Assembly: GCA_951406725.2 (NCBI GenBank)
Contig: OX597821.1
Span: 76,942,001-77,006,000, forward strand
DNA length: 64,000 nucleotides
Direction of reading: 5' to 3'
Source: Octopus vulgaris
Taxonomy: Eukaryota
Both the position numbers and the translations under genes were made by a program. The notes under the pieces were generated by a model. The model was not told where the DNA came from and did no database searches. It saw only the letters and a program-made list of their open reading frames with translations. Below are positions 400 to 24,776 of the stretch, piece after piece; positions within the stretch are counted from its first letter, which is position 1, and the number at the start of each line of letters is the position of its first letter.

Positions 400-705
400 A
401 GTCGTAAGACACCCGCTGTTTTTGTCCTGTTATTACTATTATTGTTTTTTGTATTTATATTCGTGTGGCATCGTCCGTTTTTCTGTTTGTTTCGTATACA
501 TTCGATCCTTTTTCCAAGAAATCTATTGCTCGTAGCTTAGTTTTTCCTTGTGGCTGGCCGGATCGGAGCGATCTCAAGATTAATCAGCCGAAATTGCGAG
601 GATGATCCGGTTCTTGACTGAAGATTGAAGGCTTCGAATGTCCCGTCCGTGATTTTTATATCGTCTTCTAAATGTTTTACGTTCTTGTCCCAGTTTGTAC
701 TTTTC

Positions 706-15334: not shown

Positions 15335-15525
15335 CCCTACACGCAATTTTTTTCTCTCCTTGTTTCTCTCCTTGTTTCTTTTCTGTGTATCTTTCTGACG
15401 AAGAGCGTAGGCTCGAAACGTAAAAGACTTGTTTTATTTCTATTCCTGAGTGCCATACTAATACATTGTTTGTTCGTACTCCACCTGCCTTCGTCTTTTG
15501 TTTATTTTCGTAAACCTTCCCGTTA
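15335..15525 (+). mobile_element. ~190-bp HHR-bearing short element (family H1)
   Basis: Homologues at 39455-39642 (-), 43380-43568 (-) and 47150-47303 (+); ends in (TA)n. Confidence 0.85.
15390..15427 (+). ncRNA. Minimal type I hammerhead
   Basis: TCTTT-CTGACGA-a-GAGC gtag GCTC-GAAA-CG-TA-AAAGA, with palindromic stem III (ACGU). Confidence 0.8.
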
Positions 15526-22034: not shown

Positions 22035-22637
22035 CCTCCTAACAGTGAACACGCTTTCTTCCTGCGCTCTTAAAAATCTTTCCTCGTCTAGGCCCAAAAA
22101 AGCCCTCATTGTTTGTTTTCTTGTTTGTTTTTATTTCTTGTACTGTATTTTTTTGTAATTGTATTTTTATTTTGTATTTTATTTTGTAATTTTATTTGTA
22201 TCGTTTTTACGTCCTGTTTTTGTCACATTTTTTCTTTCCTTGTTTTTACCCCTCTGCAAAGGAATTTTATTTAATTCTTTCGCAGGAAGGGCTAGTTCGA
22301 CGAGTCGTGTTCTGTCCTCACCTTCGAAACACGCATGGAGTCGTACTAGGGACAGCTGATGAAGGGGATTTTTCCTTGTGTTGTTTGTCTTGTACTCTGT
22401 TTTTTCTTTTTAAAAAAAGGGTCCTTTTCCATGTTTGTTTTTACGTTTTCGTTTCTCGTTGAGTTCTACGTCTATTTGTGGTGTCCTGTACTCACGTATA
22501 TATATTTATATATGCATGTATATATACATGTAGATGTAGGTACGTACATATATGTATGTATGTATACATATATTTTATTTATTACACTATTGTATGACTG
22601 AGCGCCCTCGCGTCGTTTCGTTTCCTCCAAGTAAGTT
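22031..22637 (+). mobile_element. Non-autonomous element family F2 between two (TA)n tracts
   Basis: T-rich non-coding unit bounded by (TA)n on both sides, carrying the permuted hammerhead. Single copy in this window. Confidence 0.6.
22286..22377 (+). ncRNA. Permuted, pseudoknotted hammerhead-like ribozyme with kink-turn (F2)
   Basis: GAAGG/CCTTC precedes GAAA(22326). CGTGU/ACACG forms stem III, with GUU site at 22309-22311. CTGTCC/GGACAG forms stem I. CTGATGA lies at 22356-22362. K-turn GA(22302)/ATG-GA(22335-22339) is closed by CTAGTTCGAC/GTCGTACTAG. Confidence 0.75.
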
Positions 22638-23333: not shown

Positions 23334-24776
23334 TTATTGTTTATTTAGCTTGGGTTCGAATTTATCAATAAAATTCTTTTCTCTGATTTTCCTCTCGATT
23401 TCACTTGGGCTGTGTAATTTGTAGAATGGAAATATTATATATATTTTCCGACCACATGTTGCTAGGTGGTTACTCAAAGGTATCTGACGGACCTCTGGGT
23501 CTCTAATCTGTTGCCGGTGTACACGTGAGCGTTCTAATAGTGCGTTTCCCGTCTGACCTACATATATTTCTTCACAATTTGGGCATTTGATGCAGTAAAT
23601 TAAATTTCTGCTTTTGCAGTTCATATTCGCGTTTGTGAATATTTTCCCGGTTTTTGTGTTTATATATTGACCGGTATGTATGAATTGGCATGTGCCACAT
23701 CGGCTATCATTGCATTTAGATACCGTGAATGTTTGGTCTTTGTTGCTGAGGTCAAATTTTGCCTTTGTTAGTAATGTTTTCAAGTTTTTAGGCTGTCTTT
23801 TACTAAGCACCATAGCTCGATCCTTGATTATGTCTTTTAATTCATTACTTTGGGCAATGATTGGTAGGTTTGCTTTGGCAATGTTGAAGATATTCTGGTG
23901 ACATGGGTTGTGTGTCACTATGAATGGTATGACTTGTTCTTGTTTTCCTCTTCCTTGGGTTGTCCTAAGTTGTTGTATAGGTATTTTTATAGCCCGCTGT
24001 ATGCCATTTTCTATAAGTAGAGATGGGTATTTTTGTTTGAGCAAAAATTCTCTTAGTTCTATTAGGCGTTTGTTCCTGATATTTGCATCTTCTACAATAG
24101 TACAAATTCTTCTGGCTAGGCAGTATGGGATGTTACGTTTTGTATGTGGTGGATGGCACGACTTAAAATTTAGGTATTGATGTGTGTCTGTGTGTTTATA
24201 GTATATATCTGTGGTGATGGTGGTGTCTTTTTTAATTACCATTATATCCAGGAATGGTAATTTGGTACTACTCATCTCCTTTGTAAATTTGAGAGATGGG
24301 TGTAGGTTGTTCAGGAGGATATTGAACTCTTCCAGAGTATTTAGAGATTCTGTCCAGATTATGAAACAGTCGTCTAGGTATCTCTTCCATGCCTTTTCAA
24401 TATACTTTCTAAATCCAGTGCCATAGTTTACCTCCACCTCTTGGTAGAGTTGTTCTTCTAAGTATCCCATTACAGAGTTGGCGTAAACGGGAGCAAACCT
24501 CGTTCCCATCGCCGTGCCTCTAATTTGGATGTAATTCTTTCCATTGAAGAAGAATGTGTTATTTTCTAGAATAAGTTTGACTGTGTCTAATATAAATGGC
24601 ACTGTGAATCTGCTGGGAATCACTTCTCTATGTTTTTCTAACCAGTATTTAATCGCCTTTATTCCTAAATCGTGTGGAATATTGGTGTAGAGGCTTACCA
24701 CATCAAAACTTAGCAAAACTGAATTTGTTTCTGTTGTTTTGGGAAGATGGGACAGGAAGTCGATGTCATCCCTGAT

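Follow-up and report, generated by a model that had tools for sequence, protein, structure and literature searches.

The question raised by positions 552–624 of a 64,000-nt stretch of Octopus vulgaris DNA (contig OX597821.1 of GCA_951406725.2, positions 76,942,001–77,006,000; hereafter, the window) is whether a rearranged set of hammerhead bases and stems found there forms a self-cleaving ribozyme. All bases of the hammerhead core and four helices are present in this 73-base motif, which lies on the forward strand, in a non-coding repeat element (F1), and represents a rearranged hammerhead motif with many thousands of copies in the genome. Based on pairing searches, shuffled controls, and compensatory changes, we put at roughly 0.8 the probability that the motif is a hammerhead of the SGC/CSG class opened between A9 and G10.1, which self-cleaves after C573 and processes the RNA of Naiad-type Penelope-like elements and of derivatives without an open reading frame (ORF), such as F1.

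Strand order and core of the motif

The strands follow the order stem II 5′ strand, helix x, block S, block G, helix x′, and the CUGANGA-bearing strand of stem I. The 5′ strand of stem II (552–556, with G10.1 at 552) lies displaced, at the motif's 5′ end; it pairs with 585–589 and is followed by a single G (G557) and by the 5′ strand of helix x (558–565; mate, 603–610), the helix that clamps stems I and II. A GA dinucleotide (566–567), the non-bulged strand of a kink-turn-like loop, precedes block S (568–579), which comprises the 3′ strand of stem III (568–572, with U16.1 at 572), C17 (573), and the 3′ strand of stem I (574–579). The predicted cut lies inside this block, between 573 and 574; the block itself is placed by the descriptor, the intact-block search, and the alignment. 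A linker (580–584) leads to block G (585–597), made up of the 3′ strand of stem II (585–589), G12, A13, A14, and A15.1 (590–593), and the 5′ strand of stem III (594–597). Beyond the bulged strand of the loop (a three-base bulge at 598–600 and GA at 601–602), the 3′ strand of helix x′ (603–610), and T611, the motif ends with the first half of block C (612–624), i.e., the 5′ strand of stem I (612–617) and the C3–A9 core CUGAAGA (618–624), with no stem II strand after it. Together, stem III and helix x make up a single long hairpin; its 20-base loop is paired with the 5′ flank through stem II and with the 3′ flank through stem I.

The sequences that define the hammerhead class are all present (CUGANGA at 618–624, GAAA at 590–593, and UH at 572–573), and stems I, II, and III surround the core with covariation. 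The block order is S-G-C, which is not one of the circular permutations of C-G-S that make up the canonical types I, II, and III. As in types SGC and CSG, the block order is non-circular, the stems cross, and a helix (here, helix x) joins the far ends of stems I and II. An intact block C, with the stem II strand directly after CUGANGA, is absent, such that the motif corresponds to an SGC/CSG circle opened between A9 (624) and G10.1 (552).

A kink-turn consists of a three-base bulge followed by tandem G-A/A-G pairs between two helices, and is marked by a sharp bend with A-minor contacts and by binding of L7Ae-family proteins. The loop between stem III and helix x (566–567 with 598–602) fits this consensus in sequence, and we take it to be kink-turn-like and probably to bend the hairpin. 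GA directly before the stem III strand, which no pattern imposed, occurs in 16 of 26 family representatives; the GA at 601–602 was imposed in the genome patterns and left free in the descriptor. The F2-type and L067-type families deviate from the kink-turn fit. The initial annotation had proposed that a GA/NNN-GA loop is shared by the motif at 552 and a second motif at 22286–22362 (+), which lies in an unrelated element of ~800 nt (F2). This holds at the 552 site, and in F2 only when one additional G-C pair and a bulged U are allowed. Similarly, stem II's 5′ strand is followed by a single G at 557, a place taken by A, C, or T in other families. A hairpin in the 3′ flank (625–638), also listed as a part of the motif, is worth only −0.4 kcal/mol and is not kept across the 26 representatives, and was set aside as a conserved part of the motif.

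Pattern searches and controls

To describe the motif, a pairing descriptor composed of the four helices and the core was used, in which the GA loop was not imposed. Only the sites at 552 and 22286 matched it in the window, in agreement with the proposal that both loci share one architecture. There were no matches on either strand of 2198 dinucleotide-shuffled windows, even when stems I and III alone were required, and the claim that chance is improbable is borne out by this control. A sequence pattern behaved likewise (two matches in the window, 0/100 shuffles). Whatever the block order, searches found no fold with an intact block C for either core (618 and 22356), and the core at 618 has no canonical C-G-S fold. 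A dimer fold between tandem copies was considered and rejected: every copy has the identical flank behind its core, so block C is not regained in this way.

The nested minimum-energy fold misses the motif (z = −0.11, no better than shuffles), and Rfam returned no match at the gathering score and seven weak matches, none of them to a ribozyme. Because the crossing stems form a double pseudoknot, absence from both is expected.

Using a pattern for the 3′ half, 26,004 matches (21,745 + 4,259) were found in the genome compared to 683 (403 + 280) for reversed controls, and 26 of the first 60 genome matches fetched passed stems I and III. Of 240 metagenome and viral loci that matched the pattern, among the matches listed, none passed the same stems; these are chance matches only and have no bearing on absence from those sources. 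One family of pattern matches (L473, L481, and L525), in which a palindrome of 12 bases lies just ahead of the GAAA block, was left unassigned by the split-motif descriptor.

Covariation of the four helices

To locate the partner of stem II, we used 138 genomic instances (overlapping and near-identical copies included) that had been picked on stems I and III only. The partner lies upstream in 118 instances and downstream in four, compared to ten for a control window. Among the 26 family representatives, own partners pair far more often than partners swapped between groups for each helix: 21/26 versus 68/410 for stem II, 19/26 versus 47/410 for helix x, 16/26 versus 13/410 for stem I, and 17/26 versus 2/410 for stem III. 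The G10.1-C11.1 pair is present in 25 of these representatives. All four helices are kept with unrelated stem sequences in at least three sequence groups of the octopus genome.

In a fixed-offset, ungapped alignment of 18 F1-like copies, from which two rows with a one-base shorter spacer (L185 and L186) had been excluded, 85.9% of the cells are paired (78.5% in helix x), a value reached by 0/500 shuffles. Eleven pairs show two-sided change, slid partners are 18–46% paired, and U16.1-A15.1 is paired in all 18 copies (U being imposed). Cross-family alignments made with MAFFT, one of which also contained a row on the wrong strand, misplace the stems, and no counts were taken from them. These results uphold the earlier claims of four helices and of a permuted hammerhead; loss of the pairings in a family consensus had been named as the observation that would overturn the proposal, and they instead persist with compensatory changes. 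The expected site after C573 likewise keeps its predicted position. The host element, the relation to types SGC and CSG, and the break within block C go beyond the initial annotation.

A further pairing, helix IV, may join the 5′ flank (539–545) to the bases after the core (625–638). Its mean score in the octopus genome (4.45) is higher than for swapped partners (3.82) and exceeds 500/500 base shuffles, and a window shifted 30 bases upstream scores 4.66.

Host elements in the octopus genome

The motif at 552 is part of a near full-length, ORF-less monomer of the ~830-nt F1 unit (1–709, +), which starts ~84 bases before the window and is followed, at its fixed 3′ end, by a (TA)n-rich tract (710–870, +). 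No ORF and no stop-free stretch longer than 132 codons was found in the F1 unit. At least 40 copies (among 1582 candidates) are 97–98% identical, implying that the family spread recently. On C6, F1 forms a tandem array with ~830-nt spacing and one hammerhead per unit, and the array at G000:C6:85539755-85545546 holds at least eight units, one of them cut down to ~655 bases. The 3′ end is fixed ~120 bases past GAAA and is followed by TA-rich DNA in 19/23 copies, the 5′ ends vary, and an inverted partner was flagged in 5/23 copies. At dispersed loci that contain the start of the F1 unit, the element's own 3′ end lies directly before it in all 24 cases. F2 behaves like F1 and has tandems of ~800 nt; its 3′ end either carries a tail of ~45 bases or lacks one. 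F1 shares with Naiads the (TA)n target and the fixed 3′ end, as well as 5′ truncation, partial tandems, and inverted copies, and lacks an ORF encoding a GIY-YIG endonuclease at the N-terminus and a reverse transcriptase (RT) at the C-terminus.

Other traces of Penelope-like elements were also noted. Fragments resembling the RT and endonuclease frames of such elements lie in flanks of F1 copies (L022:2454-2924 and L009:2705-3148, both +) and are not continuous with F1. In the window, an open frame at 23337–23918 (−; identical to L031:2578-3159) ends in a GIY-YIG domain (Pfam E = 3e-6) and is likely a remnant of a Penelope-like element with a C-terminal endonuclease, oriented opposite to F2. Two further motifs in the window, at 15389–15425 (+) and 60612–60568 (−), resemble type I hammerheads in canonical order, have a very short stem III, and are of the kind known from ordinary Penelope-like elements.

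The motif in Naiad retroelements

A third family (F3), met by chance in a flank, connects the motif to Naiads. By eye, it corresponds to the final ~130 bases of two consensus sequences, Naiad_Obim and Naiad_Ovul. In the octopus genome, decayed frames resembling RT lie upstream of F3 and in its orientation, such that its 3′ end is continuous with a Naiad RT. According to Craig et al. (2021; PMC8557442; like the other papers cited here, consulted in part), Naiads lack a canonical hammerhead, and core motifs were flagged that fit no descriptor, some with halves 35–50 nt apart on either side.

Other Naiads were read by eye from passages of the supplement of that paper; seven of 43 CUGAAGA matches were examined, and matches spanning line breaks are missed. 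In this material, the split form is present in 11/54 Naiad consensus sequences from five phyla: Bfor (stem I of 2 bp), Amil, Aacu, Anas, 2_Movir, Plae, Obim, Ovul, Esco (one stem II mismatch), one Clytia family, and one crustacean family, the latter two named by file position. The bend in the non-octopus Naiads is a bulge or a three-way junction and not a kink-turn. Each of the seven distinct split motifs outside octopus has 4–10 bp between its 5′ flank and the bases that follow the core, and a hairpin of 7–9 bp, degenerate in Esco, abuts G10.1, implying that a fourth stem closes the opening.

By the same reading, six Naiads contain an intact type CSG instead: three are Nippostrongylus families, and the other three fall among nematodes and chelicerates according to their position in the file; several Naiad 3′ ends are shown without a core. 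In supplement parts 13–16, intact type CSG is seen in nematode Naiads and in one further Naiad, and one CSG Naiad has an extra U between A9 and G10.1. For type CSG, only two similar sequences are described in the parts of Eckert et al. (2023; PMC10085705) consulted. Near supplement part 17, a Naiad grouped by file position with the ostracod families may contain S-G-C blocks joined by long linkers, with three bases inserted behind the core. The bivalve and hemichordate Naiad 3′ ends that precede the Naiad_Mmer and Naiad_Ebur headers are GC-rich structured stretches without a hammerhead core, which may represent another ribozyme or signal.

Putative traces of cleavage

If the RNA template starts at base 574, copies should often begin there or just 3′ of it. 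In a sample selected on the 3′ half only, in which ends past +15 are not visible, 29/151 (gapped alignment) or 52/144 (ungapped alignment) of the copy 5′ ends fall at 0 to +15 of the predicted cut, compared to 2–4 in each 16-base window from −17 to −96. By eye, TA-flanked F1 loci start exactly at the predicted 5′ base in 6/27 cases, after it in 17, and before it in four; the corresponding numbers for F2 are 1/29, 21/29, and 7/29. We regard these ends as a suggestive sign of cleavage. Based on duplex energies (−6.8 and −16.3 kcal/mol), the cleavage products would stay paired via stems II, III, and x.

Contigs of presumed RNA runs cover the motif, and no place with many ends was reported. A rise in their depth after the predicted cut was rejected as evidence; the same rise is present in a large run, X15, which is probably DNA.

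Alternative explanations

Could the motif be an ordinary type SGC hammerhead, with stem II built from a strand that follows CUGANGA on its 3′ side, beyond a short insert, and with a merely fortuitous match on the 5′ side? F1 does have a 4-bp downstream alternative, five bases past the core (−5.0 versus −6.8 kcal/mol), and F2 a weak G-rich one. However, a downstream partner scores 4 or more in only the four instances mentioned above and in 1/26 representatives, neither window core has an intact-block fold, and it is the upstream partner that co-varies with its mate across families, which makes this explanation very improbable. Another proposal, that the pairings are a passively copied relic without present selection, draws on the fact that most pattern matches are near-identical copies of a few families, which are not independent evidence, and that many single copies have decayed. 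It has scarcely any likelihood in our estimate, given that four helices persist with unrelated stems in at least three octopus groups and, by eye, in Naiads of five phyla in the supplement passages, and that F1 spread recently. A third explanation deserves more weight: the fold may be real and hammerhead-derived and yet cleave poorly or not at all alone, serving as a protein-binding or RT-recruiting structure or needing an element protein to fold. A split core may fold with difficulty, the hammerheads of animal Penelope-like elements have low in vitro activity (Cervera and de la Peña 2014; PMC4209133), and 62/144 copies continue through the site for >60 bases on its upstream side, which means that templates left uncut or joined again are common. 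On the other hand, the near-invariant G10.1-C11.1 and U16.1-A15.1 pairs (25/26 and 18/18, U imposed) and the variable base at position 7 follow the conservation pattern of active cores, the 5′ ends of copies accumulate after the site, and the related SGC and CSG types cleave in vitro (PMC10085705). We consider a poor cleaver unlikely, with a small but appreciable chance of being correct.

Several observations count against a self-cleaving Naiad-type ribozyme at this locus. The break between A9 and G10.1 is without precedent in the literature examined, and the known alignments presented in PMC10085705 hold at most one or two bases inserted at this point. The copy in the window has a competing nested fold at −31.3 kcal/mol and departs from most copies at base 551. 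In the 18-copy alignment, a measure of further pair types was not above shuffles (353/500). Using a strict method, 11/122 of the 5′ ends lie at −16 to −1 of the cut (Fisher p = 0.024 versus the downstream window), ~7 of which look by eye like alignment over-extension, and the AT-rich linker offers microhomology to (TA)n that confounds the pile-up, so the 5′-end signal is only suggestive. No Naiad RT remnant lies beside any F1 or F2 locus examined, such that mobilization by Naiads is conjectural, and Pfam support for the RT remnants at F3 is weak (RVT_1 E = 0.003 in 1/6 fragments). A single extra base between A9 and G10.1 is reportedly tolerated.

Proposed mechanism and implications

Under the self-cleaving interpretation, the hairpin would be bent by the kink-turn-like loop, helix x would hold the distal ends of stems I and II together as a clamp, and the usual core would form. 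In transcripts of tandem units, cuts at successive ribozymes would release unit-length RNA with a 5′-OH at 574, on which a Naiad reverse transcriptase/endonuclease acting in trans may prime at (TA)n. Short copies beginning just past the cut would arise when the enzyme runs off the 5′ end, and partial tandems when it crosses a ligated or concatemeric junction. Re-ligation to a circle would be favored because both products stay paired by stems II, III, and x, consistent with copies that run across the unit junction.

With less confidence than for the interpretation itself, the balance of evidence tilts towards a wider conclusion. The motif would represent a seventh natural hammerhead topology, a non-circular form opened within its catalytic strand, in which the A9-G10.1 backbone link gives way to a fourth stem and a stacked hairpin, and would be the missing Naiad ribozyme in at least five animal phyla, cleaving efficiently as a monomer. 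In octopus, it would contain a kink-turn and drive retrozyme-like RNAs of ~800 nt with >25,000 genomic copies. No account of a split-block hammerhead or of a Naiad ribozyme was found in the literature searched. If true, the working rule that CUGANGA is contiguous with stem II, which sets the six permutations now searched, would be overturned, and non-circularly permuted ribozymes would exist in animal chromosomes at very high copy number. Naiads would have kept their ribozyme in an order unmatched by descriptors, answering a point left open in the parts of PMC8557442 consulted. The opening beside the active site would also offer a place for sensors or chosen ends in engineered ribozymes.

Comparison with known systems

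The closest relatives of the motif are types SGC and CSG, validated in vitro by Eckert et al. (PMC10085705), who treat the hammerhead as blocks C, G, and S, each assumed to be uninterruptible. The octopus motif shares with them the cyclic S, G, C order, the core, a short linker between stems I and II, and an extra helix joining these stems. It differs in that its block C is split in two, whereas this block is undivided by assumption in types SGC and CSG, and in that the bend connects helix x straight to stem III on both strands. The hammerheads of that study came from metatranscriptomes and metagenomes, with one bacterial GCS candidate as the exception, whereas the octopus motif resides in animal chromosomal retroelements. 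The hammerhead core insertions listed by Perreault (2011), in the parts consulted, are short only.

Type I hammerheads in the pseudo-long terminal repeats (pLTRs) of canonical Penelope-like elements (PMC4209133) have the same core bases and the same position near the 3′ end of the element. Unlike F1, they have the canonical C-G-S order and a minimal stem III, and have been proposed to act as dimers.

Animal non-LTR retrozymes, proposed to be mobilized by Penelope-like elements via cleaved and circularized RNA (Cervera and de la Peña 2020, PMC7229834; Li et al. 2026, 10.64898/2026.07.22.740005), resemble F1 (~830 nt) and F2 (~800 nt) in consisting of tandem or dispersed repeats that are non-coding and contain a single hammerhead in each unit. 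The ribozyme of these retrozymes is type I with a short stem III, in contrast to the split, non-circular form of F1, the full stem III of which should need no dimer. With the Naiads of PMC8557442, the octopus elements share (TA)n targets, a fixed 3′ end, 5′ truncation, partial tandems, inverted partners, and a 3′ tail, and F1 and F2 differ from them in carrying no ORF.
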